From Amphiscolops sp. MND2022 (taxonomy: Eukaryota): a DNA stretch of 64,000 bases. The DNA is taken from contig OZ076409.1 in the NCBI GenBank assembly GCA_964187785.1, positions 17,982,001 through 18,046,000 of the forward strand, given 5' to 3'. A program made the position numbers and the translations under genes. Under the pieces are notes generated by a model, which did not search any database, had not been told where the DNA came from, and saw nothing but the letters and a program-made list of their open reading frames with translations. Every line of letters begins with the position of its first letter. Position 1 is the first letter of the stretch. Positions 1 through 42,545 of the stretch are shown here, piece by piece.

Positions 1-2354
1 TTAAATGTGTTGCTTATGCAAAGAAAGAAAGGAAAATATGCTTTCAAGGTTCCGTAAGATACCGTCGTGTTGATAGAACGGTATGGAATCATAATACATT
101 ACCGCTTCCTGTTACTCTTGATCCATTAGAATGTAAAAACATTATAGGACATTTAAATGGTACAAATGATAAAATATTGAACAACCTCCACTACAATAAA
201 ACTTTCACACTTTTAGAAGACCATTATTTTCAAGAACGATTAGAACAATATCAAACTCCTTTCACTGTATTCCAATTAAACAAAATGTACACAGGTACAT
301 TTACATTTATGCCTGCTGATAAAAACTGGATATATGACCCTACTCGAAACCCTTATCTTAACTGTCCTGCTCATCATCAATTCGAAGTCAACCTAGTTAG
401 TTGGCGATTAGAAATTTCTGAAGTCGAACTTACGTATGATGACACATCCAATGACATGATAATAGATCGACATACATTACCCTGCTATTTTGCAGATGGT
501 TTTTGTAAACTCACAACGAAAACCCCTTCGGTTCAATGATGACTATTTCCTAATTTGCACATTACAAGACTTCATTGGTCGTATGACAAAAATTGAAGAT
601 AGATACTGGATTGAAACAGACTTTTTTGTACATTCTCCACACTCAATAAAACCCAAAACAACTTTTTGTATCAAAGGTACAGAACATCCATATGTTTATG
701 CTCCTCATACACAACATCCAAATAACCCAAGTCTTTCAAGATTTGAAGTTTTTCCTACGGCACAAACTTTTTGTGGTAAACCAGACCCTCTTTATTCTAC
801 ACAATATTCAGACCTTTTTGTTACATACACTGAAAGTTTCAATATGCATACAGGACAACCCAACCCTCATTCTATGATTGATGAATATATTTCTGGTAAA
901 ACAGTATTGGACACTTCAAATAACAAATTTATATTTCCTGCATTAAATGTTTCAAACAACTTTGCTAACATTGACTATGACGCACATATAAACACCAAAA
1001 TAGATTACACTATTAACCATGTTTTCAGATCAATGACAGTACAAGAACTAAATACACTTCATACAATATGTGAATTAGAACGAAACCAACTTCTTACAAT
1101 ACTCGCAATGTCAGTACAAAATCCTCAACTTGCTGGTTTTCTTTTAACCGGTAATAGAAGTAATTTCTTGTACGTTGAAGGCTTACAAACCTGGCTCTAT
1201 GACTGCCCTCATTTTTTATCTCCTTTATATAAAGCTGATAGATGCTTTGACCGTATACCTATCCTTTTTAGAGATCCCTTAGTGTACGTTGATCCAATTA
1301 CAAGACAAACTTATGACTATGCTACAACAATTACATGTGATAATAATCAACGTAACATTATTGAACTATATCCTGATTCCGATGATCAAGATTTTTACAT
1401 TCTTGGACCTGAACCTATTAAACACAAACCTCCACTAATGTTTACACCAAAACTGAATCAAAACTACAATACGCCCTAACACTTTTACAGCTCAAGATGC
1501 TGGTATAAATTCTAATGCAGAACTCGACCAATTTTGGAATCGTATTTTATTTTCCAAACATTCTGATTCTACACTTCAATTACTAGGCAAAGCTCTTAGC
1601 TATTCTTTAATTTCATCTAATACTCCTAATTATGATGCAGATTCCCCTCAAGATTCTGGTAAACCTTATAATACATTACGTATAGGACTACATGATAAAC
1701 TCTTGAATTTAACTCCTCTTTTTACACCTACATGGTTTTCAGATGCTCTTATTGCACTTTTTGGATATCCTTGTTATATTCTCACACATTGTGGTATATA
1801 CTTTTCTACATTCCTTTTTGTACAAGCTACTCTTACACTCATTGTCAAACTTTACAAAACAATATCCATTAAATATAATCCAAAAAAATAATATTATTTT
1901 ATTTAGCTCTATCGCACATGGTTTTTTTAATGTTCTTACAGCACGAATGGTCAATGACCTCAATGAGACTCAAAACAAAAAACCCAAAAGTACACTTTTA
2001 AAAGCCAAATCCTTAGAAAATTTTATTGACACTTCAACAAATTTAATTAATCATTCTACTGATGTTACTTCCCCTCCACCTTTCTATACTAAACGTCCTA
2101 ACAAAATTCAATTTCCTAAATTTAACTTGTTTCCGAAACGACACCACAATTCTCACCAAAAAACTGCTTCACTTCCTTTCTCTCCTGTTCAACATCCTCC
2201 ATTTCCTAATTATACTCATAAAAACTTTCATCCAAATGACAATCTAACTACTCAACATGACACTTTAATTAACAATTCTGTCACCTCTATTACGGATACA
2301 CCAATTAAAATCTATTCACGGATAAACTATCCTTTTCCTCCTCCATCTTCTTGA
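1..2354 (+). pseudogene. env: Envelope-like glycoprotein, class III fusogen-like (gB/chuvirus G), frameshifted; 5' end outside window
   Basis: ORF pieces 177-539, 490-1479, 1703-1891 and 1743-2354; CELERNQLLTILAMSVQNPQLAG and LYDC...RCFDRIP...YVDPITRQ...C motifs; hydrophobic C-terminal segment followed by a P/S/T-rich tail. Confidence 0.75.
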
Positions 2355-2568
2355 ACACTCTCTCAGTTTTGTGCAAGCTCTCTTCCGGCACACTCGCCTA
2401 CTACTTCATCTTTTCACAATTGCTACTCCTCCACCACTTGAAACCCTTGCAGAAGTTCATCTTCCTCAATCCAATAACACCTCTCTCATCATAACAGTCT
2501 TCAAAAACTATTCACCTAAAGTTGATAAATCCACTCGTTAGTGACATTTAGAATACTTTAACTTTGAA

Positions 2569-3770
2569 GTGCTAAGGCCTCTTGGAATAGATAACACTGT
2601 GATTGTTGATGTTTTCCCTTTAAACACAATGACACAAGCACAACTTGACTTACAGAAACAGGCGCAACTTGATCTACAAACACAGCTTGAACAAGCAACC
2701 CCAACACATCTCATAACTAGATCTCTTTTAAATGATTCTCCCGTTCTCTATATCGAGACTTCTGAACAAACACCTCCAACTTTTCTTGAACAAATGGAAC
2801 ACACAAAAGTTGAACACGAAAATTCAAAACCTACTCTTTCACAAGATGATACTGATCATACACAAACAACACCACCTCCTCCAAAAAAGCGATATGAAAT
2901 TATGAAAGATCCAATCTTTCTTTCTTCACCAATATATCCTCCTTCAATACCTTCAAAAGTTTCACTTTGTACGAATCGTGACGATCATTTGATCCCATTT
3001 CTTTCAAATGACAATTTCGTCTTTAAAGCACAACTAACTTCCCTCTATATGCATCCTACTGATTATTCATTTCGCTTATATGACAAAAATCAAGACTTTT
3101 CACATCAATTGCCTCCAAAATAAGGGGTCCATACCAATATTGGCTTGATAACGGAGTCAAAATTTTCTCTCTACAATTCAATTTTCTCCGTCCTTCTATC
3201 TACGATCTCAAAACAGATGAATCCGATCCATCTTTCCTTTCTATTTCCCAAGAAGCTACTCATCGTCAAACGTATACTAAATTTCTACAACACACGAAAC
3301 CACAAAATCACATTTTCGTCAGTTACAAATATACATCACCGTTCACAATGACAAATATGTACACCCTTGATCACTCTTGTATAACAGGCTACCTTCGAAA
3401 CTATGACCCTATAAAACAATACTTCTGTTTGCTTCCATACAATAATACTTCAAGTCCACTTATTGTACCTCACGAATACCTCATACATTACGATGACTTT
3501 TTGTTGCCTTGCAACATTCCTACTCAAATTGTCAAACCTCTCACTGTCATTAAACACCTAGTATCTTCTCCGCTTGACGATAAAGATAGAACTTACTATA
3601 CAGCACTCTCCAAGCAAATGTATTCCTACAATGAACTCCTCTTCATTTCTGCAAAAACTATTTCTTTTATGGTACAAGCTGAACAAAAAACTGAACATAA
3701 ATCACACTCTTCACCTATAAAAAACGCTCCTGACAAACTTTCCTCTGTATTGAATAACCGAACACTATAA
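2569..3770 (+). pseudogene. Accessory ORF-a of element A, unknown function, frameshifted
   Basis: ORFs 2569-3123, 3145-3351 and 3348-3770 match 28073-29151 in C (PPPPKKRYEIMKDP, GYLRNYD..KQYFCLLPY). Confidence 0.75.
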
Positions 3771-3774
3771 TAAC

Positions 3775-3965
3775 CGATCACAACACTCACACATATACTG
3801 CACTGCTATGACAGAACACACAAACTTCTCCAGACACTCGATTTAGACTCTCAACGCATCACCCAATCATTCCAAGCAATTCAATCTGCTTTGGAAACGA
3901 TAACTACTCTTTTTAACTCAACTAATCTTCATTAAACTCTCCTACAGGTAATACAAATTTCCTAA
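3775..3965 (+). pseudogene. Accessory ORF-b remnant
   Basis: Manual translation LTHILHCYDRTHKLLQTLDLDSQRITQSFQAIQSALE is near-identical to C 27820-28010; boundaries approximate. Confidence 0.55.
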
Positions 3966-4363
3966 TTTTTCTTCTCTGGTACACCCCATGATACATCTTT
4001 GACACTATATCGAAGGTATTTACATTTTTCACCTAATTAATCCAAATAATCTCTTGCTTCCTGAATGAAATCTCAGGACAATCTTTAAAGTACATACTTC
4101 TTTCCTATAGTACATGTCAAACATAACTATTTTTATCCAAAAACTACATAAAACAATGATACAAGAAATGCAAGACGTTATAGCACAAAACTACCTATGA
4201 AACATTATAGCACCGTTTTTTAAGGTACTTCTCTTCTCTTGTCGTTGTCAAATTTCTTATACTCCGTGTGTTTTAGAAACATCCATTTTTCTTCCTCCTC
4301 CTTCCATACTCTTTCAGAACATCTCCACTTCTCCTTCTTTTTCTTCTACAGCACACTCTCGTC

Positions 4364-4816
4364 ATGGCCTCCAACGCTGAAGTAGAAGGTATCATCACAA
4401 TGACTTCCAGTCAATCAAAAGTACACAGCCTCAAAGCCGCCATTTTTCATACAATGGCTTATAAACTCTCTCTTGAAATCAACAAGAACAAAATCACACC
4501 CAAAACTATTATTGCTTTTCTCAAAGTTTTATACAATGTTGCCCAGATAAAGACAAAAAAAATCACTTTTGAACAGTACTCTCGCATTCATTTGGCTGGC
4601 CCAAAAATCGCAATTTGCGAGACTGCATTCAATGCTGTTTTCGTTTTGAATTCTGCATTTACATCAAAAGACCAATATTTCAAAACTGCCAAACAAGAAG
4701 CAATCCTAGCCTTCAATAACGTTTTCAAAGATTTTGGGTACACCCAAACCCTTGAATACTACGACCCTCAAGTGCATCAAGCCCATCCACCTCAACAACA
4801 TCCTCTATACAACTGA
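4364..4816 (+). CDS. Accessory ORF-c of element A, 150 aa, unknown function
   Basis: Intact ATG-to-stop ORF; homolog in C at 27025-27451; preceded by a pyrimidine tract and CAG acceptor-like site at 4349-4351. Confidence 0.75.
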   Translation: MASNAEVEGIITMTSSQSKVHSLKAAIFHTMAYKLSLEINKNKITPKTIIAFLKVLYNVAQIKTKKITFEQYSRIHLAGPKIAICETAFNAVFVLNSAFTSKDQYFKTAKQEAILAFNNVFKDFGYTQTLEYYDPQVHQAHPPQQHPLYN

Positions 4817-5804
4817 ACACTTTACTTACTTTGTCACTCTTCAACTACATTTCTTCTTGATTCCATCATCTTTCTTCTATGATGTTTGAGATGTAGCTGT
4901 AGATCACTCCTCCAAAAGAACTTCTCCTACACATGCTGACACTTTTCACTACACCCCACAAGATGGTCAACATCATCCATCCACACTCTGGGTTCGCAGA
5001 CGTTGCCAACATTCTTCTTGTCCTCGTCACTGGTCTTTCTGTGCGACAGCCATCTTTCTCTTTTTCAACCTGCCTCTTCACTGTTCTTTCTCTGTGGCAG
5101 TCACTACTTCGTCGACTTCTTGACTGGTCTTCACACTTCAATGGACTGCACTCTTCTCCAAATTTCAAACAATGTGATTCCAATTGAGTCAATTTTCAAA
5201 CTAAACTATATAGTCAATTTTAACTAATCTATAACCCTCAATTGTAAACATATAGTCCATCTTAACTAACTAACTTGTAACTTATTGTATTCCATTTTAA
5301 TCAAATTGTAACTCCAATACAGTGTATAATCTTAACCCCAATTTCATCGTAGTGCTATATAAAATCTTAATCTTCTATAATCGTACTATAATTACCCCCT
5401 CTGTTGCTATCCCCACAAAAATTTACCTATAATTACCTTTGTAACCGCAATATTATCCCCTTCCATTGTCTTGTGTATAGTATATTGACATAATCTTATC
5501 TAATTCCTTTGTTACATCTATAATACACTTCAAAAAAATATCTCTAATCCCCATTTTTTACAGAACATAAGTCCTACCTACAGCACAAGAAATTTTCTAA
5601 GATTTTTGGACAAAAATGTTTTCTTTTACAAAACATGTTCTACACCTTTGTTTTACTTCCCAAAAGCAATCCCTAAAAATTTTCAAAATTTTTCTTTTGA
5701 ACTTTTTCAAACTGTAACTTCTCGTTTTTCAATGTTTGAAACTTGCAATTGCCACAGTTCTTTTCTTTCTTCAACTTTTTGCTTCTGCTGTACTCTTCAC
5801 TTTC

Positions 5805-6005
5805 GTTGAAAATGAACTCTCACTAGAACCTTGACTATTCGAAACTTCTTCACTTTTGGTTCACATACCCGCCAATGTTGGTTCACAACTCATTGACAAC
5901 TTCACGCTTTAATTCTTCAACTTGAAAAGTTTTCAATGCTGACTAACTCATGTTGATGACAATTTTTTCAAACAAGCCGATGCCTGGTACGAAAAAGAAA
6001 CATGA
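5805..6005 (+). pseudogene. Accessory ORF-e remnant
   Basis: VENELSLEP*LFETSS...SQLIDNF aligns codon-wise with VENELYFEPRLFKSSS...SQLIDNF in C (~25985-26185); in-frame stops in A. Confidence 0.5.
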
Positions 6006-6291
6006 AACATTAAATAGTTGTCAACAATAACTTGACCGAAAACTGTCAGTCAAAGAAACTGAAAGAACTTGAACCTTTTGCACCAATTGAATCGTCTATG
6101 ACGTAAGAAGTCAAATCGTCTTAGGTTGTTCTCACTCCTTAAGTATGGTACACTACAGAACGAAACTCATGCAACACATGCATAACACATATGAAACAAA
6201 CCTATGCATATAACATCTGAAACAAAAACTTTTAGAACTTCTCAAACACAAAGTGCATATATGTAATTTTATTTTTAAATTCCCGGTTGAT

Positions 6292-6704
6292 TGTGATGCC
6301 ATGATGCATGTCCTCAAAGATTCTATAAATCTGAAATACTCTGAACTCCTAACCAAAGTAATTAGTAAATGTAATCTCATTTGAAAGCTAATTATTGTAG
6401 AAGAAACTTCACTTAATATATCCTGTAACAATCTTCTTAGATTCATCCTGATGCTGTCACATTATTAATTGATGAAACCTACCCTAGTTAATAGAATATA
6501 TCTACTCGGAGAAAATGAGAATTCATCCTGACGATCAGTCTTCTCTCCAGCACTTCAAGAACTGAGATCTCAGAAATAGATTGTACTTAGAGCTAGCTAG
6601 CTGCAAGGTATAAAGTAAGACGACCCTGCTGTTAAAATCATAGACTTCTTATGTCAGTAATAAAACATCTAAAAGAAATAACACACACGCTTTTTAACAG
6701 CTCA
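6292..6704 (+). repeat. 3' LTR of element A (413 bp)
   Basis: Begins TGTGATGCC and ends TTTTAACAGCTCA, the same termini as the C LTRs read on the minus strand. Confidence 0.85.
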
Positions 6705-7167
6705 TATGAACGACTTGCCATGAACTTGTCGAACAATTCAAACAATAGTGAATTATTTCTGAATACTCTGAACATCTAAATACTCCGGTTCAGGACGGAG
6801 TAGCTTGTTAACAGCCTGTCGAAGAATATTGACTTCGAAGAATATTGACTAAAGAAAACACTCTCCAACTACTTTTTGCATTACTTCGACACTAGGTATC
6901 GAGAAAACTCTAGTCAAACCTGGAGAATGTAATCACAGCCAATCCACCAGGTCGAACTCATTTCTTGAAAAAACCTCCCCGGCGTGTTGTCAAATATACA
7001 TATAAATAACGTTCGGGGTATTGAAAATACCGTTGGAGCACTTTGCAAGACATGTTTTGGGACAAAAATCATGTATATCATGAAAGCTAGTTATGCTCCC
7101 TTGAACAGCTGAGGTTCACTGGGGCCCTATTCATGGTCATGTCGTTAGAATCGACCACCCTGGTTAC

Positions 7168-9229
7168 TGTTGGAACTAACGTTGACTGAGTTGCCGATGG
7201 GTTCGGAGTTCCCTATTGATTCAGGCTCGATATCATGTCGTAGAACTGAACCTGAAGGTTCAGTGGCGGAATTTGAAAGACCATCTACTTTCGAGGCTAG
7301 ATTTTCGATTAATTTCAAAATTTCTCTTTGTCCAAATTCTGCGTCTCTTAGTCTTTTGGACCGTCGATTTTCAATCTTGTTTGAAATATCTGAGAAGTCT
7401 TGTTCAGTCAAGCAAGTATTTTCATCAGAAGCCTGGCTTGTAGACTCGACATTTTCCAAACTACTACTTGGGTCACTCCTAAGTTTCCTTTTCTGAGATT
7501 TCTCGGGCATCGTCGAAAAGTTTAGTTGATCAAACAGGTTAATTCGACTGGTTTAACTGGTGGTTGAACAAATCAAGAGTTTCCAGAACAAGCTTGTTCC
7601 AATGCAAAGATACAGTCTCAAATCCAAAGAAAACGTTCGCAAGCAAATAAAAGAGTACAATCAATAATTGAAAACTCAAAATTCAAAGTTTTGGGAATTA
7701 CAAATCAAGGTTGAGCTTTCGCGAAATCAAAATAACACTGTCCTTTTCCTTTTCCCACTTCAGGTATTTATACTTTGCGCTAGACACGCGGGATAAATCC
7801 CGCGCGTGAATTCACACTTCGTTCAGCTCGGCGTCCTTCCGAGGCAAGAAAATCCAAGTCAGGTACGCTTCCTCGGGACTCGGCTTTCGGCTTCATCTCA
7901 CTTCAAAGGAAAAGTGGGAATCAACTTCCTGCCGAAGTCCCAATTCCGCGTACCTTTCTTCTTCATCTCCCGCCAATTCAAGACGCCGAACCGAAGTTAG
8001 CACTGAAATTCATGAACCTAGCTACTGAAGCGGGAAAAGGAAATGAAGTTTACATCGAAGAAAATGAAACTCTAAATAAAATAAAACTGCACTAAATTAA
8101 GAAAAATGGGAATTCGGGCATTATTATTCTCATCAACTGAACACAAAATGATCAATTTGGGTGGATTAATTCGTTGGTTAAAGTTCTGGTCGAATGCCAG
8201 GGCGGAGTGTTAAACTGAAATTTTCCGGAACACTTGACCGGATATTGAACATCATTAATCAACACAGTGGGGGGGGGGTTTAACGCAACTTTAATGGCTT
8301 TAGTGAGTATTATATGCCATTCAATCAATAAACGTTCATAACAAATTAATAATCAGCACTTGTCACAATGTAATTAATCTTTCATTCGTTCTCAACTAAG
8401 CAGTTGCCCCGGCGGTCGACCCGGGGTGGGGCTCTACCAACACAGTAATATTTGAATAAAAATACTACAAAACGAACGAAATATTGCTCTGGTGGGGGAA
8501 TCAGGACAAATTAACAATATTATCCATGTTACACTAATGATTAATGCACAGTAATATCAACTATATTTGATCGGTTGTCCCGGTGGTTGTCCCATTTGGA
8601 AAGTAGAGTTGGGTGACCAGGCGGTTGACCTAAATAATAAAACAAATACTTTCATCCTTTAGACCCTTCATTATTTCCATCGGTTATTTATTTGTGGTTT
8701 GAGCTTCTTTTAAGCTCTGTGATCACGATAGAATAGCACAACATGTTATACAGTAATACTATTGCTTCAGTTGTTTCAAGCGTGCGACCAGGCGTGCGAC
8801 CCAGCACTCGGTCGACTGGTGAGCTGCCTGGTATTGCTGTTCAGCTAGCGCGGTGAATTTGCGCTAATCGCTGATTGGTCCGATGAAATTGGAATGAAAT
8901 TTAATCTGCTTTAGCTCCATTGTTATTGTAGCGGTAAATTGATCAGCGTGTTGGCTGAGTTAATTTCGGTCAATATGCTGGTCGCTTTACTGTAAACAAA
9001 TCACACTAATAGCACTTTAATAATATTTAAGTATTTACATATTTATGTATTTTAGGTACTGCGCTGGGTTAATAATGTTTGTTGGATAGTTTAGATGGGT
9101 TGTTTGTTAATTGTTTCTTTCAAGGTGAATGATGTTCTTATTCGGTCCCTTTCTGGTTGATTTCTCTATTTCCTTCCTCTGGCGTTCTCCTTGTATTCGT
9201 TATTTCGCTGCTCCTAGAGGGCTGCGACA
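7168..9229 (-). repeat. 3' LTR of element B (2062 bp), carries a copy of the gag 5' end
   Basis: Direct repeat of 20794-22854. Confidence 0.97.
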
Positions 9230-9773
9230 GTCCCCTGCTTTGGTGAGGGACGTCCACTATGGGAGGTAATGGAGAAATTGGCCTGAAAGGCGACGATATT
9301 GGCGGAAGAAATACCGATTGTACCATTGAATCGTAAGATAGCCAGGACGAATCGGTTGACCAGTCACTTCCTGAGAAGTAACCTATCGAACTAGAGTTAC
9401 TGGAGATGGGGCTGATTGTCCCATCGTGCGGCCCGTATAGCCAATTGTCCATGTTCTCGTAGTTTCTAGGGGGGCTCGTGAATTCGTCATCCGGGATGAT
9501 CGGGTTGGAGTTGACAAATTTCCTGTATGGTAATGTGTCCGATTGGGCCGTTGCTAATATAGATATTGGTGCCGACTCATGATAAAGGACAATATGTTCC
9601 GTCCCAGTGTTAATAATCTCGTAAATATCCTCAATTATTGGTGTTTGAGTATTTTCGCATTTATCACCATGCACCTTAGGTGTTGATTGTGCACAGGGGT
9701 TTACTGGGGCAGCGTCTTGGTCGCGGTCCAAAATGAAATAATCGGTTGAGGAATTGAGTGTCGATGAATTCAT
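9138..9773 (-). CDS. Element B sense-strand 3' ORF, 211 aa, S/P/D-rich, crosses the PPT and ends inside the 3' LTR
   Basis: Intact ORF with ATG; an ORF occupies the equivalent position in element D. Confidence 0.55.
   Translation of the reverse strand: MNSSTLNSSTDYFILDRDQDAAPVNPCAQSTPKVHGDKCENTQTPIIEDIYEIINTGTEHIVLYHESAPISILATAQSDTLPYRKFVNSNPIIPDDEFTSPPRNYENMDNWLYGPHDGTISPISSNSSSIGYFSGSDWSTDSSWLSYDSMVQSVFLPPISSPFRPISPLPPIVDVPHQSRGLSQPSRSSEITNTRRTPEEGNREINQKGTE
9230..9241 (-). other. Polypurine tract of element B
   Basis: AAAGCAGGGGAC immediately before the 3' LTR on the minus strand. Confidence 0.7.
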
Positions 9774-10054
9774 TTGATCCGATGAGTAAATAAATTGTAT
9801 GCAATAAATAGTAATACTTGTAAGTAATGCTGAGCGGCTGTTCTGCGGAATGGTCGAGTAATTGAATGATAATTCCGTTCTTTTCTTTTGTTCACGCCGC
9901 TTGCATGAATGGGAAAGTTTTCAGCTGGCAGACTGAATGACTTCCATTACGTCATACTAATAATATTGTATAGTAGTAATCTCGTTGGTTTTACGCCACG
10001 TCTTCGTATTGGTATTATTGTGTTGACATTTTTAGATTGATTTGCTTGCAAACG

Positions 10055-13000
10055 ATGTCAAATTCGACTGACGAAGATGATCAACGACTGTTACAGGCAG
10101 GAAAGATTGGAGTTATGGAGAGCGAGGGTGAAGCAGTGTTAGGAGGAGGGGAAGTCGCGAGTGGTCTGGATGAAGGGAATGGGGAGGAATCGCAATTGAT
10201 TATTGCTGAGACAACTGATGAGGCTGTCACTGGAGATTCTCCTGTTGAGTTGGAAGTTCCGGTGTCTTGTGGTGGGCGTGGATTTGGAGAAAAAGATGAT
10301 GACAGCGACTCTGATAAATCTGGGTCTAGTCTGAGTGAAGTTGGTGTTCCCCGCGGCGATACCGGTGACGATGATGATGATGATGATGGAGGAAATTCTG
10401 TGCATTCAGCATCTAGTGACGCCCGCCATGAATTGGACTATTTGCATGATTTAAAGGGTGAGTTCCTTAGCGAATTGTTAGTGGCCAGCTAACTTTTCAT
10501 GCTAGTATACAGACGCGTCGTTTCATCCAACTTGTCTGTGTTTTAGGCTTGTCTGACGATTCTCATGATGAGGATTATGTTCCTGGGTCTTCTGTTCGCG
10601 TGTCAGCTACTGTGGAACGTGTCCGTCGCGAAGTGTCCTTCGTTGAAGGCAGTCCCGTGAAGCGTGGTCGTTGGTCCTGTTCTGGGACACCTGCCAGGGA
10701 AACTGCTACTGCTGCACCTAATGTAGAGACTAGTGGTGGGTAAATCTTCTCCTTTGTTATCACATGTCATTTGTCCATACTTTGTATATTTTTGATTATA
10801 GTCGTTTCCTCACCATTTGGGATGCATACGTCTGCGGGGGTTCATTCGACGGACTCTGAAGGTGTTTTGCCAGTGACGGGGGGCTTTGCTTTCAGCGAGG
10901 AGCCTGGGTGTAGTGATCAGCCTAAGCGGGGGCGGACCCAGCATGCTCGTCTTGCCGAAGGCCTGGAGCGCTCTGTGATCCACAATGAATGGGCTAAAGG
11001 TGATTATAGTTTTGTTGTTGGGTTATTAGTGGTTGTTATTTTGGTCTGTCCTTCGTTTTTGTTTTTTTTTGTTTTTGCCGTATGCAGTCTGTCTGAACTG
11101 TGTTCACCCATGATCTTCTTTTTAGCTGGGTTGAAGGATGTGCCAGAAGGTGCTGTGTGTATGTCGGCATCACAGGTTTTGGCTTTCGGCCAGGCAGCTG
11201 TTCGATTGGAGCGGACCCAGAGTCGTGTGGAGGATCGTTCATTGTCGCGCCGTTAGTATTGCACTCTTATGGCTCATTTCCAGCATCAGTAGTTATCATC
11301 TTTATACTCCGTGTATTTCTTGATTCGATGATAGTTGATTGGAGAGGGGCGGGATAGTAGGTTTCGGGGTGACTTGGTAATGAGTGTTTGTATTTCTGTT
11401 TGTAAGTCTGGACGAAATCATGCGCCTGCTCAAGCAAAAAGGGATCCAACTGCATCGAGTCCGTGGGCATTTGAACGCTGAGGAGGAGACCAAGAGCAAA
11501 TTGTTTGCGAAGTACGAGAGAAGGAAAAAACGGCAAAGCGAGCGTCATGTTCTTCGCAGAGAGATGGCTACACATGCGATTCCTCGGCTCTTTGTTAGCC
11601 GAAGGACTGATAAGAACCCAAACGGGTTCAATTGTGCGATTTGCCGTAAAGATGTTTCGTTTCTGTCGCGTGGGGAGCTGGAAATCTGGAGGCATTTCGG
11701 TCGCAAAACTCATTTCGCAAAGGACCGACGATATCGGCTTGACCATGAAGATTGCATCTACACAGAGAAGTTTGATGAGATTGCTGTTGCCACCATATCA
11801 CCAGAGTTGCGTGCTGAAATTGAGCTGACGCCCCCTGTTGTTCTTGGACCAAAGAATGCGTTCGAGGAGGATGAGGTGGACGCTCTTGTGGGCGTAGTTT
11901 CCAATGTGCCTTGCTCAACCTTGGTTGGGGGTTTGTTTGAATTGTTGCGGAGTGGCGGGTCCCACAGCTTCCTTAGACGTTTGTGGAGTCAGTTCAGGAC
12001 GACCATCCCCGTGGAGACCAGCTATGCCCAGGCCACCTGGAGTAAAACTGAGTCATTTGTTATTTTGTGTCAGACATTGTATCCCCGAATTTTGCGTCGG
12101 GTGCAATCTGGTTGTAAGCTGTCTGACTTCAGTATTTCTTTCCGGCGTGACGATAGTGGGGTGCAGTGTTATGTCCACTTCTTTGCTAGCGATGTCGTCC
12201 GCGAGGTTTGTGTGCTGTGGGAAGAAGTCTCTCCTGGGCTGTGCGATGCGGAGATCAAGTGCTTGACCCGCGTCCTCGCGATTCTCCCAATTGATCAGTC
12301 TCCAGTTGCTGTCCGGGGCTGTCCTTCGACGCTGTTCAATGTGTTTTCTTCGTGGTGCAAGGACGAAGGGCGACCGGTGCCACTGCCTGTGCTGGAGTAT
12401 ACCCCTGATGTCTTTAGAGAGCAAATTCGTGAAGCTGGCTTAGTTGGTGCAAACTTGTTGGATCCATTTGCTATTTTGGACTATTTGCTATTGCGCTTGG
12501 TTAGAGCCGTCCACCAGCCTTGGTTAGAGTCTCTGCCGACTTTTCGTGTGTGTATAAGCCAGCGCCAGGTGCCGTTTCCTTCTTTGCGTGCTGCTATCTC
12601 AGAGTTGATACATCATTGGGCCGATGTGACACTATTCTTGAAAGAGACGGGGACTGTTCTTCCTTCAAAGGGCAAGGCTCCTCTTGACGTTGGTCAGCTC
12701 ATTGTGTCGGATACCCTAGTGTTGCCCCGATTGAGTGTCTTGCATGTTCTTGTTGCGTGCTTCGAGGCCAACTTTGTGAAGCAGTTTGATGAATCAGTGA
12801 CTGACTACACCTGTCGTAATTATTCCGATTTCTGCTATTTTTATTGGAGTTTGCTCGGCAAAGTCAAGAAGTTGAGTAGTCTGCCTGAGATCGAGGCTTG
12901 GAGCCAGTACATCGGTCGTCCCTTGACTACGTGGGCTAATATCCCTTTCGTCGAGTGTCTTCGTGGTGAGCCCCTTGTGACCGTGGCCTTATCAGCTTGT

Positions 13001-13996
13001 GGAGATACTGTTCGGCGGCCTTTCCTCCGTGAGTGCCATGGGTTTCTTTCGGAATTCTTGAAGGTGTTAAATCAGTCGGCATATGCGAAGTCTGTCCTGT
13101 CCTCAAATCTGAGCTGCTTTTCGCCTGATATGATGTTGTTGGGCGATGAATCTTACGCAGTTCAATTGTTCAAAGATTTGACGACTTGTCTTCTTGACTG
13201 TGGGCGGTTGGCGTCGTTGGATTGTGAGGCGGCCAGTAATGAGTTCAAATCTCTACTTGTGGAGTTACGGCGTCGGAATCGGCGTGTTGTGTCGTCGATC
13301 AAGGACAGTTTTGTATTCTTGCGGGATTCCGGACTTCTAGACTGCCGGCTGAATTTGGATAAGGTGGTACAAATTGCTGCAATGGCGATGGTTCCGCGGT
13401 GTGTCAATTATCCTGTCGTGGATATGTCCTTGAGTGGAGCTTTGGTGCCGAAAAAGATCCTGTTGTCTTCGATATTTGCTTGTCAGTCATATGTGACATT
13501 CAGGAAGTTTGCCTCCGGAGAGTTGTTGACCAGGGACTGTCTAGAAGAACTGAAAACCAATTTGCCGAACGGGAAGGGTTTCATGGAGGACGCTTCGTTT
13601 ACACCGTGGAGGCCGTTGTATGCTCATACCCGCTGTGATATGTATCGAAGATTGCGAGATGCTTTCGATGCATACTATCTGGATCAAGTATCGGAATGGC
13701 GTCGACGAGCTGGATTGGGCTTGTATGCCGCGACCGCGTCTCCTGATAAATTGTTACCCGAGTTGCAATTCTCGCATGCTGCATCTGTTGTTGAGGAGAA
13801 TGTTGGGACTTCTTCCGCCGTTAATACTCCCCCTTCAGTGAAGTCTGTCGGCAAAACGGTCAAGCAGGCGGGTGGTTCTGGCAGTATTGCGGAGATCGTC
13901 AAGATGAAGAAAGATCTTCGGCAAAGTGGTGTGTCTGGGTCGTCGTCTGGTAAAGGCAGTTCTAGTGGGTCAGTGAAACGTGGATCCGGGCGATGA
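10055..13996 (+). CDS. Antisense spliced gene in element B: acidic N-terminus, BED-like zinc finger, hAT-transposase-like body
   Basis: Frame-consistent exons 10055-10457, 10547-10735, 10802-10999 and 11126-11251 with GT..AG introns; long open exon ~11400-13996 containing CAIC-x(16)-H-x(5)-H; junction between exon 4 and the long exon unresolved; homologous to 50731-54643. Confidence 0.8.
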
Positions 13997-14336
13997 AACA
14001 CATTGTAGCAAATTTGGATCAAACTTTAGATTTAGTTGTATTTGTACTGCTATATGTTGTATTTCTGTTGTTATTGGTCCGAAAGGTCCATCAGTATGTC
14101 GATTTACCATAGTAAGCAAACACAGACAAAATTGTCTGAAAATTGAATCGCCACTTTGTGGGAAAAAAAGGGGTTTGTTAACAAACCCGGCAAGTAAAAC
14201 AGTACAGGGAGTTCTTGAATTTATTTCTTTGCCCTTCGAATTTGTTTTCTCGTGAGTTTAGGTTGAGTCGTAGGGGTGATTAAGTAGTTTGTAATAGGGT
14301 AAATGAGACGATGATCCTTCCAGTTAGTTGGGAGTT

Positions 14337-17300
14337 TTAGTCTGTCGCGTTGGGTTCAGCATTTATCGGATTATAATAAGCATAATCCTTCTTCCAATTT
14401 GATGGAGGGTTTGCCCTTAAGTTGTATTTGTTTTTTCGGGGAGAACTCGGGGTTGGGGTATCATTTTCAGTGGCATCAGGATCGGCGTTTAGCGTGGCAT
14501 TTCCTGGGTGTTCGTTTGGGTTAGGTTCCAGGGGAAAATCTCCTGGGTCATTCGTTGGGTTGTCCGTTTGGGTAGGTAGATCTTCGTGTGACTCTGGAAT
14601 TGTTATTGTGGGTTCTGTTTGAAATGGGGGTGTCGTTGAGGTGTACTCATCGAAATTGGACTGCCATGCCTGCGCGTATAGGTCGTCGTGGAAGACGTCT
14701 ACTTCCTTGTCTGGGGTGTAATCTTTGGGCAAGACAGGTTTGTCCGGGAGCGATTTGTCGGTAGGGCATGGTTTCAAGCGAATCCTGTGTAGGATTTGTG
14801 TATAGTTTGTCTGTAGTTTCCGTATTAGGTAATTGTTGTTGGGGAGCACTTTGACAATAATATAGGGCCCTGTCCAGAGGTATTCTTTGAATGGGAGTTT
14901 GGTTCCCTGGGTATTCGCTTTTGGGTGTAAGGCGTAACAGTATTCGTTGACATTGAGGGGGTGGGCGTTTGCTTTTTTGTCGTAATACTGTTTGTATCGC
15001 ACGTATGACTGCATTAAGTTTTTGTTCACCGCCTCCTTGATTTGCTGTGTTTTGTGTAGAATGTCTTCTCCCATGTTCGTCGTCGTAGTTGTAGGTCGTT
15101 GGTTTCGTATGCCAAATTTGAGGTCCAACACGTTATATGGGATCCTCCCGTGGAACACTCGGCTGGGTTCACACCCTAAGGCGGAGTGGTACGATGTGTT
15201 GTAATTCAGCGTGGCGATGGCTACGTATTGATGCCACATCGTCCGGCGCTCTCCTGTCGAGATTTTCAGCGATTCTTTCAGAGAGGCGTGGCTTCTTTCT
15301 AAAATTCCGATGGTTTGGGCATGTTTAGTGGTAGCATGACGGAGATGTATGCCCAGGGTTCTCGTCGCGTCTGCCATTACCTCAGACATAAACTGAGTGC
15401 CCTTGTCGGTGATGACTGTAGTAGGGAGGTAGGCGTGACGGGTCATGATGTCGACCAAAACTCGGGCTACTGTGGGGGCGTCCGTTTTGACGACATAGTA
15501 GGTGAAGAGGTAGCGCGAGTAGACGTCCATTGCAGTGACAATCGCGTTATAGCCACCGGAAGGCTCATCAAACGGGACGATGTCCATTTGAAGTGCATCT
15601 TCTGGGCCTAGGGCCAGTTTGGAAGTGTCGATCATTGGTGGTGTAATGGATCGTTTGTCCGTTCGTTTGGTCTGCATGCAGTCGGTACACCTGGAGATGT
15701 GGTGTGCTATTCTGGCTGCCATGCCTGGGTAGTAATATTTCTCTCTGCATTGCTGTATTACCTTGGCTATTCCGGGGTGTTTATTGGCTTGGCCATGGTG
15801 CGCTAGGATGAAGGAGTCAACCAAATGTGCAGGTAACAGGATTTGCAGGAATTTGACCTTTCCTGCGTGGTCGTAATACTCTCGGTATAACAGTCCGTCC
15901 TTTAGGATTATTCGGTTGGCTTGTGCGCTGTATTTGGCTGCTCGGGGGTCGGTTGCCAAGAGTTGTTCATTGTGAGGTTCCTTGAGCAAGCGGAGTTTGT
16001 AATTTCGCAGGACATTGTCTTGGTCCTGTTGTTGCCTCATGGTCTTCGACGGACCGTCGTGTTCGTCGGTAGCTTTGGGTGGTCCTTGGGTTACGAGTAT
16101 TTCCGTTTGAAATATGGTAACTTCTTGGTCATTGTTTGGTGTTTTGGGATTGGTTTCGTCGGGGCCAGGTTCTTTATTGTTGTCATCGGCAATTTTCTTT
16201 CGTGCACGGAGCTTGCGCTCCCATATTTGTTCTTCAGTTTCCGTGTCATCATCAGGCATGAAGAAAAATTGTTCTTCTTCCGCGACATCGGATGACTGGA
16301 TGTTGACCTGGATCGGTGTTGTTCGTATGTCATCTCTTATTGTGAGGTGGACCTTGTCTTTTGGATGAAGGTCGAGGCGGGACAGGAAGTCCGCGGGAGT
16401 GTTCATTTTGCCCGGCACATGAGCAATGGTGAAGTGAAACTGAAGAACAAAATCGCAGGCATTCCAGAGGGCCGGGGGTATGATTTTGGTTTGAAAGAAA
16501 CGTGTCACTGATTTATTGTCGGTGAGGACGACAACCGGTTTGGTTGATTCCCAAAGAATGTGGCTATACTCCATGAAAGCGAAGTATATTGCCAGAAATT
16601 CTTTCGCGTAGATCGACATTTTAATTTGTGACGGGGAAAACATTTTTGACCCGAATGCCACTGGTGCGTAGGTTTTTCGGACTGAGCTGATTTTTTCTTC
16701 GGGGTTTTCTTCGATCATGAGGGCATAACCTGCATTTTTGAAGTTGGCGTCGGTCATGAGTACGTATTGTCTGTTAGGCATAGGTTGTTTGAGCCACAAA
16801 CCACAGGCATTGTCCAAGGATTTGTTGATGTTGGTGAAGGAGTTCATGATCTCGTTTGTGATCTTGATGGGCTTTTCAGCCTTGATGAGCTCGTGGAAAG
16901 GGGCTATCTTTTCGGAAAGCCTGGGAATGTAATTCCGGTAGTAGTTGACGAAGCCAATGTAGCGCTGGAGACCCTTTTTGGTTTTTGGGAAGGTCAGTTT
17001 TTGTAGGTAGTTGTGGATCTTCTGATCTTGGGGGGCAATTCCTTCTGGTGACACTGTTCGTCCAAGGAATTGGACTTCCTTGGCACCGAACTGGCATTTG
17101 GCCATTGTCAAACGCAGGCCTGCTTCGCGTACGCACTGGAAGACCTCACGCAGGTTGGTCTTCAGCTCCTCGGCGTTGTGGGTGGCAATCCCGATGTCGT
17201 CAACGTACTGAGCGCATTTGTCAGCCTTGATGACTCGATCGAGATATTCTCTCATGAAGCTCGAGAAGGAGGAGAGGGACCTGCTGAGCCCTTGTGCGAG

Positions 17301-19754
17301 TCGGAGGTATGCGAATGTTCGACTGGCGAAATTGAAAGCTAGGAGTTCGACCGACTTTTTGTCTGCCATTTGCAAGACGTGATAAGCCTGGGAGCAGTCT
17401 AGCTTGCAGAATAGCTTTTTCCCTGCGAGGTGTTGGGCAGCGTCTGAGAGGGTGCTGACCGGGTGGTTGTTATTTGTGTAGTCGTCCGCTATCAAATTGT
17501 TGATCTTTCGGAGGTCGACTAGCAGTCTGAGGCGTCCGTTTGGTTTTCTCTGGGCAAATATGGGACTTGCATATTTGCTAAACGGTAGCGTGGTAATGAT
17601 GCCGTAGTAGTGCATCAATGCCAGTTCTACTGTAAGATCTTCTTTGAGATTCACTGGGCAGGGTAGGCTCTGCGTGTAGGCCGGCTGATCGTTTTTCGGG
17701 GTCAGTTTTATTTTGAAGTCGTGGTTGACGCCTATGTCCAGGCGGTGACGGGCGAAGACGTCATGGTATTCAACCAGAATGTTCTCTTTGTCAGCTCGGT
17801 CTTGGCTGTTCAATTGGGAGTCCTCCCATTTAAAATTCTCGAGGAATTTTTGTCTGCTTTGAGGGCTTGTTGTTGGGTCGAGTTTTTGGATTTCCTCTAG
17901 TTCTTCGATTTCTCGGAGGATCCTTCTCTGGACGGGGGTGTGGGTTGATGGGTCCCCCGGATTGTCTGGAGTTGGGAACCAGAACTGTTGGGTGGTCTCA
18001 GGTTTTTCTGTGGTTTTTAAGAGTTCGTTTACGTACTCTAGCGCCTGTTCTGAGTCGTCCTCTGTTAGGATTTTGAGCGCGGCGATGGGGATGGGTTTGA
18101 TGTTCTTCGCTTCGTTGGGCGTTGTAATGTGAAATTCAGCTACCACTGTGTTCTTTTTGATGGTAAATGGGGTAGGTGAGGTGTTCGTGATCCGGATGGG
18201 TATTTTCATTTCGTGGACTGTGGATAGTGAGCTGGCGATCACTATTTGTTTGTCTTCAGAATAGTTTGGGAGTGGGTGGATGACGCCCGTAGTGTCTGCT
18301 ATAGCCCTTATGTTGACTAGGGCTTCGATTGTGATGCATTGGTCAGGGGCCAGTGTCGTTTGGTTGGGGATGGACACCTTGTGTGGTTTCGCTGGTTGTT
18401 CTTCGGACACTGGGTTTATTGCGTAGGTTAGATGAGGGAAGTGGAGAAGTCCCTGGCTTGCGTCGAGGATGGCGCTGTTGGTTTTGAGAAAGGTGAGGCC
18501 GAGAATGGGGCCATTGATTTTGCTGGCTACTATGAATGTCTCTTTGAACGTCCAGTCGCCGATTTCAAACTGCACTTGGATAGTCTTGATCGGGGTTTCA
18601 ATGTCGCCATTTGCGACTTGTAGTTTGAACGGCGGTGGGTCAGATTCTTGTAGGAGATTATTGGGGCTCATGGTTTTGAGTTTTTGGTACTCTTGTTCGG
18701 GCATGCAATTGACCAAGGCCCCGGAGTCAATGAGGGCGTCAATGGAAAAATGTTGGAAATCCATCGGTGCGAATAGCATGCGTCTTTTCTGTTTGAGAGC
18801 AATTGCTGAGAATATTGGGAGGCATCGTTCTCCCGTTGGATTGTTTGTGGAGGTGATGTTGACTAGCTGGTCTTCATCCAGTTGTATCAGTGGGTTATTG
18901 TTATCTTGTTGGGTATCTACCGGTTTGGGGTTTGGGTGCGGATTTTGATTGAATTCGCATGTCAGTGCTCGTTTGATCCGCCTCGTCTTTGGGGCTGTAT
19001 TAGCGTTGGTTGTATTTGCAGGATTGTCGGAAGGGTCCCCTTCTTTGTGTGTAGTTGTCGTGCCTGTAGTTGAGTTTGTTGGGTGGACGGAGCTGTCCTT
19101 TATTGGGAATTCAGGGCTTTGGGGAGATGATGGCGATGACGTCATTGCAGCCCGGATTTCATTTGTGTGTGCCGGAACTCTTGTGGGTGACCCGTATTCG
19201 GTCGAATTGGTGATTTGTGGTTTGAGGATTGGTCTCAGAGAAATCGTAGGGGGTGTGACGATAACTTGTATTTCCTCGTTTTGTTCTTCGGCGTGTTGTA
19301 CGGGTGAGTGACTGAGGTTGCCATCATCTTTCCGCTTTGTGGTGTCCAGATTCATGTTTGTTTTCTTGGCGAATGCGTGGAAGGGTACATTGATCATCTC
19401 TTTGAAGGTTAGGGTAGTTTGGTCGTATAGGTCAGGGTTGTGGTAGGGGTCACAGTCGTAGTCTGGGTCGAGTATGTAGGTGAGAGGAGTTGAACTGGGA
19501 GGGAGAGGGCGTCGGGTTGTATTGTAGAGTTGAGGGTTTTCTTGGTACCATTCTGGATATTGCAATTTGTCAACGGTGGATTTGTTGAACTTGATGAGGC
19601 GCCGTATGAGCCATCTCCGCTGCCAGTCGGTAGATGGTTCACCGGAACACTCTGCGAACATCTCTAAATCGTGGTCCTTCGGGGGTTCGGATGTTGTGTA
19701 AAATCGGTAATCGATATAATCCCCGAAGCGAAGACGTGGCTTTAGGAGTTTTTT
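14337..19754 (-). CDS. pol: Pol polyprotein of element B (protease, RT, RNase H, integrase), reached by -1 frameshift
   Basis: LIDSGA, QYVDD, LMTDA...KEFLAI...LTDN, HHCC zinc finger, MDIV...TDKG...E catalytic core, WTGPY; frame is open from the slippery site through ORF 14337-19661. Confidence 0.97.
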   Translation of the reverse strand, partial: KKLLKPRLRFGDYIDYRFYTTSEPPKDHDLEMFAECSGEPSTDWQRRWLIRRLIKFNKSTVDKLQYPEWYQENPQLYNTTRRPLPPSSTPLTYILDPDYDCDPYHNPDLYDQTTLTFKEMINVPFHAFAKKTNMNLDTTKRKDDGNLSHSPVQHAEEQNEEIQVIVTPPTISLRPILKPQITNSTEYGSPTRVPAHTNEIRAAMTSSPSSPQSPEFPIKDSSVHPTNSTTGTTTTHKEGDPSDNPANTTNANTAPKTRRIKRALTCEFNQNPHPNPKPVDTQQDNNNPLIQLDEDQLVNITSTNNPTGERCLPIFSAIALKQKRRMLFAPMDFQHFSIDALIDSGALVNCMPEQEYQKLKTMSPNNLLQESDPPPFKLQVANGDIETPIKTIQVQFEIGDWTFKETFIVASKINGPILGLTFLKTNSAILDASQGLLHFPHLTYAINPVSEEQPAKPHKVSIPNQTTLAPDQCITIEALVNIRAIADTTGVIHPLPNYSEDKQIVIASSLSTVHEMKIPIRITNTSPTPFTIKKNTVVAEFHITTPNEAKNIKPIPIAALKILTEDDSEQALEYVNELLKTTEKPETTQQFWFPTPDNPGDPSTHTPVQRRILREIEELEEIQKLDPTTSPQSRQKFLENFKWEDSQLNSQDRADKENILVEYHDVFARHRLDIGVNHDFKIKLTPKNDQPAYTQSLPCPVNLKEDLTVELALMHYYGIITTLPFSKYASPIFAQRKPNGRLRLLVDLRKINNLIADDYTNNNHPVSTLSDAAQHLAGKKLFCKLDCSQAYHVLQMADKKSVELLAFNFASRTFAYLRLAQGLSRSLSSFSSFMREYLDRVIKADKCAQYVDDIGIATHNAEELKTNLREVFQCVREAGLRLTMAKCQFGAKEVQFLGRTVSPEGIAPQDQKIHNYLQKLTFPKTKKGLQRYIGFVNYYRNYIPRLSEKIAPFHELIKAEKPIKITNEIMNSFTNINKSLDNACGLWLKQPMPNRQYVLMTDANFKNAGYALMIEENPEEKISSVRKTYAPVAFGSKMFSPSQIKMSIYAKEFLAIYFAFMEYSHILWESTKPVVVLTDNKSVTRFFQTKIIPPALWNACDFVLQFHFTIAHVPGKMNTPADFLSRLDLHPKDKVHLTIRDDIRTTPIQVNIQSSDVAEEEQFFFMPDDDTETEEQIWERKLRARKKIADDNNKEPGPDETNPKTPNNDQEVTIFQTEILVTQGPPKATDEHDGPSKTMRQQQDQDNVLRNYKLRLLKEPHNEQLLATDPRAAKYSAQANRIILKDGLLYREYYDHAGKVKFLQILLPAHLVDSFILAHHGQANKHPGIAKVIQQCREKYYYPGMAARIAHHISRCTDCMQTKRTDKRSITPPMIDTSKLALGPEDALQMDIVPFDEPSGGYNAIVTAMDVYSRYLFTYYVVKTDAPTVARVLVDIMTRHAYLPTTVITDKGTQFMSEVMADATRTLGIHLRHATTKHAQTIGILERSHASLKESLKISTGERRTMWHQYVAIATLNYNTSYHSALGCEPSRVFHGRIPYNVLDLKFGIRNQRPTTTTTNMGEDILHKTQQIKEAVNKNLMQSYVRYKQYYDKKANAHPLNVNEYCYALHPKANTQGTKLPFKEYLWTGPYIIVKVLPNNNYLIRKLQTNYTQILHRIRLKPCPTDKSLPDKPVLPKDYTPDKEVDVFHDDLYAQAWQSNFDEYTSTTPPFQTEPTITIPESHEDLPTQTDNPTNDPGDFPLEPNPNEHPGNATLNADPDATENDTPTPSSPRKNKYNLRANPPSNWKKDYAYYNPINAEPNATD

Positions 19755-25283: not shown

Positions 25284-25725
25284 TGAGCTGTTAAAAATTT
25301 GTGATATAGTTCTTTTTAGGTCTTTCATGTAGTACGTAAGAAGTCTTACATTCTTAACAGCAAGTTCGTCTAGAGTATCAAGTTTACTGAATAGCTAGCT
25401 ACTTCTAATGTCTATGAGATCTCAGCTGGATACTTAGAAACCGTTTCTCAGTTAATACTCTAATTTTCTCCCAGTAGATATAGTCTACAAATTAGTCAAT
25501 GATTACAATTAGTTATATTGTCATGCTAATAGATTAATAGTGACAACAGTAAGAAGGGTAGGATAGAGTAACCATTACATTGTCACAAGTCATAAGTTAG
25601 GTTATGTCCAAATGTCAGAAGCATAGTCAACTTCAGTTGACTAGAAATGAAATGACATCTATCTCTTTGAATTAGGTTATTTCGAGGTATTTAAAAGTTT
25701 TTAAGACATGTATCATGGCATCACA
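25284..25725 (-). repeat. 3' LTR of element C (442 bp)
   Basis: Direct repeat of 42546-42999 with a 12-bp indel and scattered substitutions. Confidence 0.95.
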
Positions 25726-25984
25726 ATCAACCGGGAATTTTTGAAAATAAAATTCATTCATCTGCACTTTGGAAGTGTGGAGTTCTGAAGTGTTTTTGTC
25801 TTGCATGAAATTTTGTTCTAGAAAAGCACTGTACTTAAGGAGCGAGAACAACCTAAGACGATTTGACATCTTACATAAGTGACGATTCAAATTGGTGCTA
25901 AAGTTTCAGTTTTCTTAACTGACAGTTGCGTTCAAGTTATTGATTGACAACTTGTTCACTAGTTTATGTGATATATTAGTTTTG

Positions 25985-26185
25985 CATTTTACGTATCTGC
26001 CGTCGGCTTATTTGATAAAATACTGTACATCAGCATGAGTTCTCAAAATTGAAAGTTTTTCATGTTGAAGAAAGATTCTACGAAGTTGTCAATGAGTTGT
26101 GAATAAACAGTGGCGGGTGTTTGAACCAAGTGTGAAGAAGATTTGAAAAGTCTAGGTTCGAAGTAAAGTTCATTTTCAACAAAAG
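25985..26185 (-). pseudogene. Accessory ORF-e remnant of element C
   Basis: Codon-level homology to 5805-6005; boundaries approximate. Confidence 0.5.
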
Positions 26186-27024: not shown

Positions 27025-27451
27025 TTAGTAAAGAGAATGTTGTTGTGAAGCATATACTTGATGACTTTTTGGGTCATAAACCTCGATTTTTTGGGTATAT
27101 CCAAATTCTTGAAGGACTTTATTGAAAGCTTCACAAGCTTCGTCTATGGCTACTCTCAAGTAATTATCCTTCGTCGTGAATGAGGAATTGAGAACAAATA
27201 CTGCATTTGAGGCGGTTTCACATATAGCGATTTTTGGGCCATCAAGATGGAGGCGGGCATACTGTTCAAAATTAATGTTTTTCTTTTTTATTTTGCATTC
27301 ATTATAGAGAACTTTCAGAAAGGAGCGTTGGGTAGAAGGTGTGATTTTAAAGTTTAAAGGCCATTGAATGGAATATGGCTGCTTTGAGACTATGAACAGT
27401 TGAAGTAGAAATTAATTTGGTTTGATTTGTTTTAGTATCTCGCGGAGCCAT
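27025..27451 (-). pseudogene. Accessory ORF-c of element C, frameshifted by an internal deletion
   Basis: VHSLKAAIFHSMAFKL...FEQYARLHLDGPKIAICETA...FGYTQ matches ORF 4364-4816. Confidence 0.75.
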
Positions 27452-27819: not shown

Positions 27820-28010
27820 AATTTGTATTACGTGTATGAAGATTTAATGTAGATTAGTGGATTGAAAAAGAGTAGTTATAGATTCAAGAGCAGATTGTAT
27901 TGCTTGTGAGGATTGTGTTATACGTTGTGAGTCTAAATCAAGGGTTTGCATGAGTTTATGTGTTCTGTCATAGCAATGGATTATGTGTGTGAGAGTGGTG
28001 ATGAGAGTGT
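27820..28010 (-). pseudogene. Accessory ORF-b remnant of element C
   Basis: HCYDRTHKLMQTLDLDSQRITQSSQAIQSALE matches A 3775-3965; boundaries approximate. Confidence 0.55.
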
Positions 28011-28072
28011 CAGAGGGATTGCGTTAGTATGGGTCCAAAAAAGTGTGTGATATCTTTAAATAGTACGATTAT

Positions 28073-29151
28073 TTAGAACGGATGAAAGTTACGAATCGGT
28101 GAAGTATGTTCAGTAGTTGGTGGCTTGTGTTCTGCTTTGGGTTCAGATTGGACCATGTATGTAATAATTTTGGCTGAGATGAAGAGTAGTTCGTTGTACG
28201 AATGAGCTTGTTTAGCAAAAGCCGTATAATATGATCTATCTTTATCATTTAGTGGAGAAGAAACAAGGTGTTTGATTACTGTAAGAGGTTTGACAAGTTG
28301 TGTAGGAATATTGCAAGGTAACAGAAAATCATCGAAGTGGATGAGATATTCTTGAGGTACAATAAATGGTCTGGATGTGTCGTTGTAAGGAAGTAGACAA
28401 AAGTATTGTTTGATAAGGTCGTAGTTGCGAAGATAGCCAGGTATTTGAGAGTGATCGATTGTGTATAAATGTGTCATATTAAATGGTGATGTATATTTAT
28501 AATTGACAAAAAGATAGTCCTGTGATTTTGTGTGTTGTAGAAATTTAGTGTATGTTTGATGATGAGTGGCTTTTGTGATAGAGTGAGAAAGGAAAGATCA
28601 GATTCATCTGTTTTCAAATCGTAGATAGATGAGCGTAAAAAATTGAACTGGAGTGAGAAAGTTTTAACGCCATTGTCAAGCCAGTATTGGTATGGAGACA
28701 TGATTTTTGAGGCAATCGATGCAAAAAAATCATGGTTTTTATCGTAGAGGCGAAATGTGTAATCTGTGGGGTCCATATAAAGGGAAGTTAGTTGTGCTTT
28801 GAATGTGATATTATCTTCTGATAAAAGTGGGATCAAGTGATCATCACGAGTTGTAGAAATAGATGGTTGAGAAGGAATTTTTGAAGAGAATATAGGTGAG
28901 GAAAGAAAGACAGGATCTTTCATTATTTCATAGCGTTTTTTTGGCGGTGGCGGTACTTCATGTGTATTATCAGGAGGAGTATGAAGTTTTGAAGGTGTAG
29001 TATGTTCTATTTGTTCTACTTTTTCGGAAGGTTGAGCATTTACTTGATCAATGGGTTCAAGAAAAAGTACAGGAGAGTCATTAAAAAGAGGTTGTGTTGC
29101 GAGATCAGAAGATGATGGTTCAAGTTGAAGATCAAGATGTGCTTGTGTCAT
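28073..29151 (-). pseudogene. Accessory ORF-a of element C
   Basis: ORFs 28474-29151 and 28073-28477 are homologous to 2569-3770. Confidence 0.75.
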
Positions 29152-33150: not shown

Positions 33151-33188
33151 TGGTCGACTAGTTTTCGTTGGGTTAGCAGAGCGAAGGG

Positions 33189-38325: not shown

Positions 38326-38329
38326 ATGT

Positions 38330-42543: not shown

Positions 42544-42545
42544 AT

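Follow-up and report, generated by a model that had tools for sequence, protein, structure and literature searches.

A two-gene accessory cassette, putatively splice-switched, between env and the 3' LTR of an env-bearing Ty3/gypsy element

The window, by which we refer to the whole 64,000-nt stretch of DNA analyzed here, is densely filled with LTR elements, including two copies of one env-bearing element. Copy A, on the plus strand, comprises only the 3' part of the element and extends from the window start to the end of its 3' LTR at 6704 (LTR 6292-6704, with TG...CA ends common to the copy C LTRs). Copy C (25284-42999, 17.7 kb, on the minus strand) is a decayed yet complete element, as delineated by Pfam matches, LTRs that are 94.6% identical (25284-25725 and 42546-42999), and a flanking 4-bp target-site duplication. 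Its constitution follows the order LTR-gag-PR-RT-RH-IN-extra ORF-env-ORF-ab-ORF-c-LTR, in which Pfam models were matched in the order PF03732 (gag), aspartic protease (a weak match, E 0.16), PF00078, PF17917/17919 and PF00665, together with a weak SH3_Tf2-1 tail match. Judged from these Gag and Pol domains, with gag followed by PR-RT-RH-IN, and consistent with TG...CA-ended LTRs and a short target-site duplication, the element is a Ty3/gypsy LTR retrotransposon. Membership of the complex Retroviridae (class I SU/TM Env, retroviral Pol) was also considered and rejected, Pfam returning Monjiviricetes and retrotransposon models instead.

The 3' part of env in copy A (1..2354, plus strand) is broken across several frames and matched the PF24664 Monjiviricetes_fusion model at 466-1476 (E 6.6e-14), with scores of 51.2 and 29.8 bits in the two copies against a cut-off of 27. 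Comparison of copies A and C yielded an env dN/dS of 0.07-0.11. From the domain match, and from the position of env after pol as in gB-type errantiviruses, the envelope is assigned to the class III chuvirus/gB type.

In copy A, 3,937 nt separate the env stop (2354) from the 3' LTR (6292), in keeping with the roughly 3.9 kb of an earlier note, and the same order of ORFs recurs on the minus strand of copy C (25284-42999), as had also been claimed. From these observations the note proposed four or more novel accessory proteins, encoded by ORF-a, -b, -c and -e. The cassette is real and holds two genes, here termed ORF-ab and ORF-c, both of which are coding and under purifying selection. Third-position changes between copies A and C were strongly enriched in ORF-a (99 of 154 substitutions, p 4e-15), ORF-b (23/29, p 5e-7) and ORF-c (75/139, p 5e-7), bearing out the protein-level conservation reported for these three frames, and the bias was absent from their shifted plus-strand frames. 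Selection was measured pairwise between the two copies with dS near saturation, such that the dN/dS values are rough; over the conserved parts of both genes they range from 0.08 to 0.18, comparable to env. Within ORF-a, dN/dS declines from 0.35 (N-terminal 54 aligned codons) through 0.18 (next 85 codons) to 0.09 in the core; ORF-b and ORF-c give 0.08 and 0.18, respectively.

ORF-ab (2629..3935, plus strand) unites the two frames that the note had treated as separate genes. In copy A the gene has suffered a frameshift near 3100, with stops and a loss of sequence near 3770, and in copy C (27844..29151, minus strand) it is broken by indels and one stop, the breaks falling at different places in the two copies. 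When the C-terminal part of ORF-a served as query, 767 relative clusters were recovered among 844 candidates; of 83 database relatives extending to the end of ORF-a, 58 continue into ORF-b. Because relatives carry both parts in one chain (59 of 151, with the same 17-residue link in 56 of these 59), we consider them a single gene of ~450 amino acids; a natural chain of 468 residues also occurs. Profile searching of 1.84 billion representatives identified 429 proteins at E <= 0.001, the best 150 of which were considered, and when 151 relatives were compared with a natural full-length chain, identity fell below 60% in 58. Because this divergence extends down to 32% identity, ORF-ab is, as judged from sequence, kept across deep subfamilies. 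All 10 divergent ORF-ab relatives looked up are unnamed ENA records, as are the 120 ORF-a-query and 120 ORF-c matches listed, and among the matches listed no ORF-ab relative was found outside such records.

The predicted makeup of ORF-ab comprises an acidic, fast-evolving N-terminal region of ~100 residues, a basic patch, an aromatic-rich conserved core and a C-terminus that is helical. Of the 30 relatives in which the patch was located, 29 keep two or more basic residues there. None of these 30 matches the K[KR]x[KR] pattern at the PPPPKKR that the note had singled out in ORF-a as nuclear localization-like, and that reading is not confirmed. A strand-turn-strand pattern was observed at about 3390-3500, where the AlphaFold2 model contains three low-confidence strands, and residues ~270-305 are, by eye, what we take to resemble a Tudor/SH3-type barrel. 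In addition, the stop of ORF-ab coincides in part with an ATTAAA in each copy (3931-3936 in A; 27848 in C), which may serve as an internal poly(A) signal.

ORF-c (4364..4816, plus strand) is open in copy A, where it encodes 150 amino acids from the first ATG after a candidate splice acceptor, and is broken in copy C (27025..27451, minus strand), in which its 5' third is about 20 nt shorter. Searches recovered 570 relative clusters among 577 candidates, and a length of 147-152 residues was found in 96 of the 120 matches listed. ORF-c is less conserved between copies A and C (62% amino acid identity) than env or the ORF-ab core (about 80%), and is mutually unrelated to ORF-ab (probability 0.2%). 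Its core is basic, with 15 K/R against 6 D/E, and in 85 of 89 located patches three to four of four residues are basic, with the K[KR]x[KR] pattern occurring in 52 of the 89. The best-predicted part is a helical hairpin at residues 23-60 in a low-confidence AlphaFold2 model.

The remaining frame, ORF-e, corresponds to a conserved block before the 3' LTR (5789..6291, plus strand; about 70% identical to copy C) that behaves as non-coding DNA. The frame in copy A contains 3 stops in 85 codons, third-position changes between A and C were unremarkable both across the frame (21/53, p 0.2) and in its ungapped block (13/33, p 0.29), and codon bias was found in none of the six frames across both strands. 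A search covering proteins of 46-149 aa returned four single-member relatives with differing starts among 7 candidates, compared with the 570 and 767 clusters found above. ORF-e hence drops out as an accessory gene, and the codon-position bias by which the note's proposal was to be judged is present in ORF-a, -b and -c and absent from ORF-e. A total of four or more separate proteins is accordingly very improbable: in its favor are the conservation of the ORF-e block (84% over 107 nt) and the four database proteins called in the ORF-e frame (in a search whose query was short and contained three X), against which stand the single ORF-a/ORF-b chain in relatives and, for ORF-e, stops in both copies, the missing codon bias and the differing starts of its four relatives. 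Short frames at 4890-5227 were also rejected as genes, their counterpart being absent from copy C. The spacers between ORFs do diverge, as had been noted, but those between ORF-b and ORF-c and between ORF-c and ORF-e align far above shuffles. The ORF-e block is probably a cis-element. No response element is evident within it, because its folding energy was no better than that of shuffles (z +1.5 and -0.6); an Rfam scan of 2300-6800 likewise gave no match.

The note had recognized none of the proteins, and this stands. Neither ORF-ab nor ORF-c was matched at family cut-offs in Pfam (30, 6 and 24 proteins), in NCBIfam (7 proteins) or in PDB profile searches; the ESM Atlas provided no usable match for either, and no related locus was found in IMG/VR and JGI scans. 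AlphaFold2 models of ORF-ab and ORF-c were poor (pLDDT 35.6 and 49.7), with shallow alignments (Neff about 1.6), and Foldseek and VIA fold-search results were disregarded on account of these poor models. Membrane segments are absent from both proteins (hydropathy of the best 19-aa stretch 0.9-1.4). A leucine-rich export pattern was complete in 7 of 60 cases. The cassette was not found in the mainly open-access literature searched. ORF-ab and ORF-c would constitute two new protein families in a gypsy post-env layout that appears new to that literature.

Closer inspection of the sequence around ORF-ab identified candidate splice sites. A putative donor, GTTAGT (2537..2542, plus strand), is conserved at 29187 in copy C, whose 17.7-kb sense strand contains no other GT[AGT]AGT; copy A contains two. 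By itself the donor word common to the copies carries no significance, 399 of 1000 shuffles sharing a 9-mer. An acceptor AG common to both copies (4275-4276 in A, 27577-27576 in C) lies in a 36-nt island (4269..4304, plus strand) that is 92% identical between them, and in neither copy does an ATG intervene between this acceptor and the start of ORF-c. Another two pyrimidine-rich AG sites, at 4316-4317 and 4350-4351 on the plus strand, are strong in A only. The note had placed such pyrimidine-rich acceptors before ORF-c in both copies, which holds for copy A, where just 2 of 204 AGs pass an 80% pyrimidine cut and both precede ORF-c, but not for copy C, whose 5 passing sites (of 595) lie elsewhere. 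Also seen by eye was a YAG, broadly homologous between the copies and lying 75-85 nt before the donor (about 2450; about 29262 in C), which could start a short non-coding exon.

Joints were sought by mapping 422 relative proteins onto copy A, which revealed 21 non-collinear joints, most resembling ordinary deletions. Fourteen of these were forward skips and were checked, after exclusion of 7 repeats, back-jumps or weak pairings. Some GT and AG lay within 9 nt in 3 of the 14, and the fit was exact only for P0183, a relative known as a protein only, whose match to the post-env spacer ends at 2536 and continues from 4277, in the ORF-c leader. Among the 4 possible cuts, only that at GT...AG yields the observed junction residue, and the chance of any of the 21 joints hitting some GT...AG is about 0.015. 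Exactly absent from P0183 is a putative 1,740-nt GT-AG intron containing ORF-ab (2537..4276, plus strand), and the simplest reading of this protein would be that it derives from a genomic copy of an RNA after loss of that intron. ORF-ab thus likely resides inside a 1.74-kb GT-AG intron, retention of which would lead to ORF-ab and removal to ORF-c. For ORF-c, the spliced subgenomic expression envisaged in the note gains indirect support, from one relative's joint on a conserved GT...AG. This joint comes from one protein of 422, in a family where deletions are common, and could reflect a chance deletion with an adjacent point change. Were the P0183 joint such a deletion, both genes would still be real, and ORF-c could be expressed from an internal promoter or through spliced-leader trans-splicing at the conserved acceptor. 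Internal env promoters are described for Tor elements (PMC4402516), and trans-splicing is known in some LTR-rich invertebrate genomes, involving 30% of genes in one acoel (PMC9911081). Expression without cis-splicing is nonetheless distinctly improbable, given the exact GT...AG fit in P0183 and the conserved donor that is unique in copy C.

Returning to the intron-switch reading, a 3' subgenomic RNA, arising through an upstream splice or an internal promoter, would give rise to ORF-ab when the intron stays and to ORF-c when it is removed, and the full-length RNA would have to exit the nucleus with the intron still in place. Because of this requirement, export control of the kind exerted by Rev or by CERV of the Ty3/gypsy-related Cer1 retrotransposon is the likeliest role, and ORF-ab and ORF-c may tentatively be viewed, by analogy, as soluble regulators of the element's own intron-containing RNA that would act by moving it out of the nucleus. 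ORF-c would be the likelier export factor of the two, being the product of the fully spliced RNA as well as small, basic and helical, with ORF-ab as its later-acting partner. In the Pfam, NCBIfam and PDB searches, the ESM Atlas and the poor models, neither protein showed homology or a fold in common with any RNA-export factor. Taken as a whole, the picture of an env-bearing Ty3/gypsy element with a two-gene accessory cassette that is splice-switched and encodes RNA-regulating proteins is one to which we give even chances.

Two other functions were weighed. Vif, Bet and the cargo domains of Burro act, or are thought to act, against host defence, and both genes might similarly oppose silencing by the host or the cell's defence (piRNA/RNAi, chromatin silencing, apoptosis). 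The faster evolution of ORF-c (62% against about 80% identity for env or the ORF-ab core), the orphan status of both proteins, restricted where checked to unnamed ENA records, and the by-eye Tudor/SH3-type resemblance of ORF-ab residues ~270-305, built on low-confidence strands, would fit this role; with dN/dS far below 1, no positive-selection signal, and no Pfam match to defence or apoptosis domains, we regard it as rather unlikely. Less probable still is a structural role, in which a matrix- or nucleoprotein-like module tied to the chuvirus/gB-type env would link env to the capsid. In chuvirus genomes, G adjoins N and a small ORF; here both genes lie directly behind a Monjiviricetes-type glycoprotein gene, their sizes (~450 and 150 aa) fit those of chuvirus N and the small ORF, and ORF-ab is as strongly conserved as env. 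Against it, the gB-type env is argued to be ancient in these elements and not a recent capture (PMC13524379). Furthermore, no viral nucleoprotein was matched in Pfam or PDB sequences, and no related locus was found in IMG/VR.

Regulators encoded behind env typify the complex retroviruses of vertebrates, among them foamy viruses (tas/bet) and epsilonretroviruses (orf-a/b). The element resembles these viruses in accessory-gene position and total size and, if the putative splicing holds, would do so in spliced or subgenomic expression, but they are Retroviridae, while this element combines a Ty3/gypsy Gag/Pol with a Monjiviricetes-type env, and no protein similarity to them was found; the note's label of complex-retrovirus-like hence applies to the layout only. 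Fish foamy-like ERVs of up to 17 kb (PMC6431247) and DrFV-1 (PMC2774666) belong to the same group of complex retroviruses, whose accessory genes follow env and precede the 3' LTR. Closer to the present element, the gB-type env is widespread in Ty3/gypsy elements, and HSV/gB-type errantiviruses (PMC13524379) share its LTR-gag-pol-env order, PR-RT-RH-IN Pol, class III-type env and many genomic copies; unlike them, this element possesses two more conserved genes after env and a length of 17.7 kb. The main text of PMC13524379 contains no match for 'accessory', 'extra ORF' or 'splice', and relatives may be present in its supplementary element table.

Cer1 CERV of C. elegans is likewise an orphan, non-membrane LTR-retrotransposon protein, of about 500 aa, produced from a spliced RNA and carrying candidate NLS and NES; it differs in being spliced from the gag region and in its Cys-rich and G-protein-like domains, ORF-ab and ORF-c being post-env, and no similarity between CERV and either of them is shown (PMC10309623). 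Extra ORFs in gypsy elements are already known, including MDG1 sORF1/sORF2 (PMC11952523), bdelloid ORF3s (PMC5408684), and those of Ogre and Burro (PMC6431247), with ORFs downstream of env noted as occasional captures (PMC6431247). They too are selected accessory ORFs in Ty3/gypsy, but lie before gag, replace env, or encode recognizable enzymes or domains, unlike the two orphans after env, one inside a putative intron, described here. It is conceivable, if doubtful, that ORF-ab and ORF-c mark an invertebrate gB-type Ty3/gypsy "complex errantivirus" with independently evolved, splice-switched post-env regulators from two new protein families, one of them a Rev-like export factor, kept across subfamilies of 32-45% identity. 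If true, a gypsy lineage with a selected, splice-controlled pair would represent an independent origin of the complex-retrovirus design, and the 2536/4277 junction would offer a precise handle on the nuclear exit or silencing evasion of long intron-containing retroelement RNAs.

Additional features were observed elsewhere in the window. In copy C, a further frame of ~410 codons in pieces (31890-33133, minus strand) lies between integrase and env, Ser/Thr/Pro-rich and then beta-rich-looking at its end, with no Pfam match and only one copy within the window. The long 5' region (40113-42545) comprises frames upstream of the Gag core without Pfam match (40113-41311, minus strand) and about three 47-nt tandem repeats (42205-42359, minus strand). 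Two near-perfect hairpins with 80-nt and 26-nt arms and 1-nt loops (34738-34898 and 34935-34987), possibly inserted foldback DNA, lie between the frames for RNase H and the integrase core. At 7168-22856 is a young Ty3/gypsy element that lacks env, has LTRs of 2,064 bp that are 99.4% identical, and keeps gag and pol open on the minus strand; it contains an antisense 870-aa ORF (11384-13996, plus strand) with a Cys/His motif near its start and no Pfam match. A third element (47178-62650; 1.5-kb LTRs, 94% identical) also carries antisense frames, at 52030-52518 and 53354-54643. The 429-aa frame of this pair shares only 20% identity over 274 columns with the 870-aa ORF (E 0.4), and the two end in a similar Ser/Gly/Lys-rich tail.
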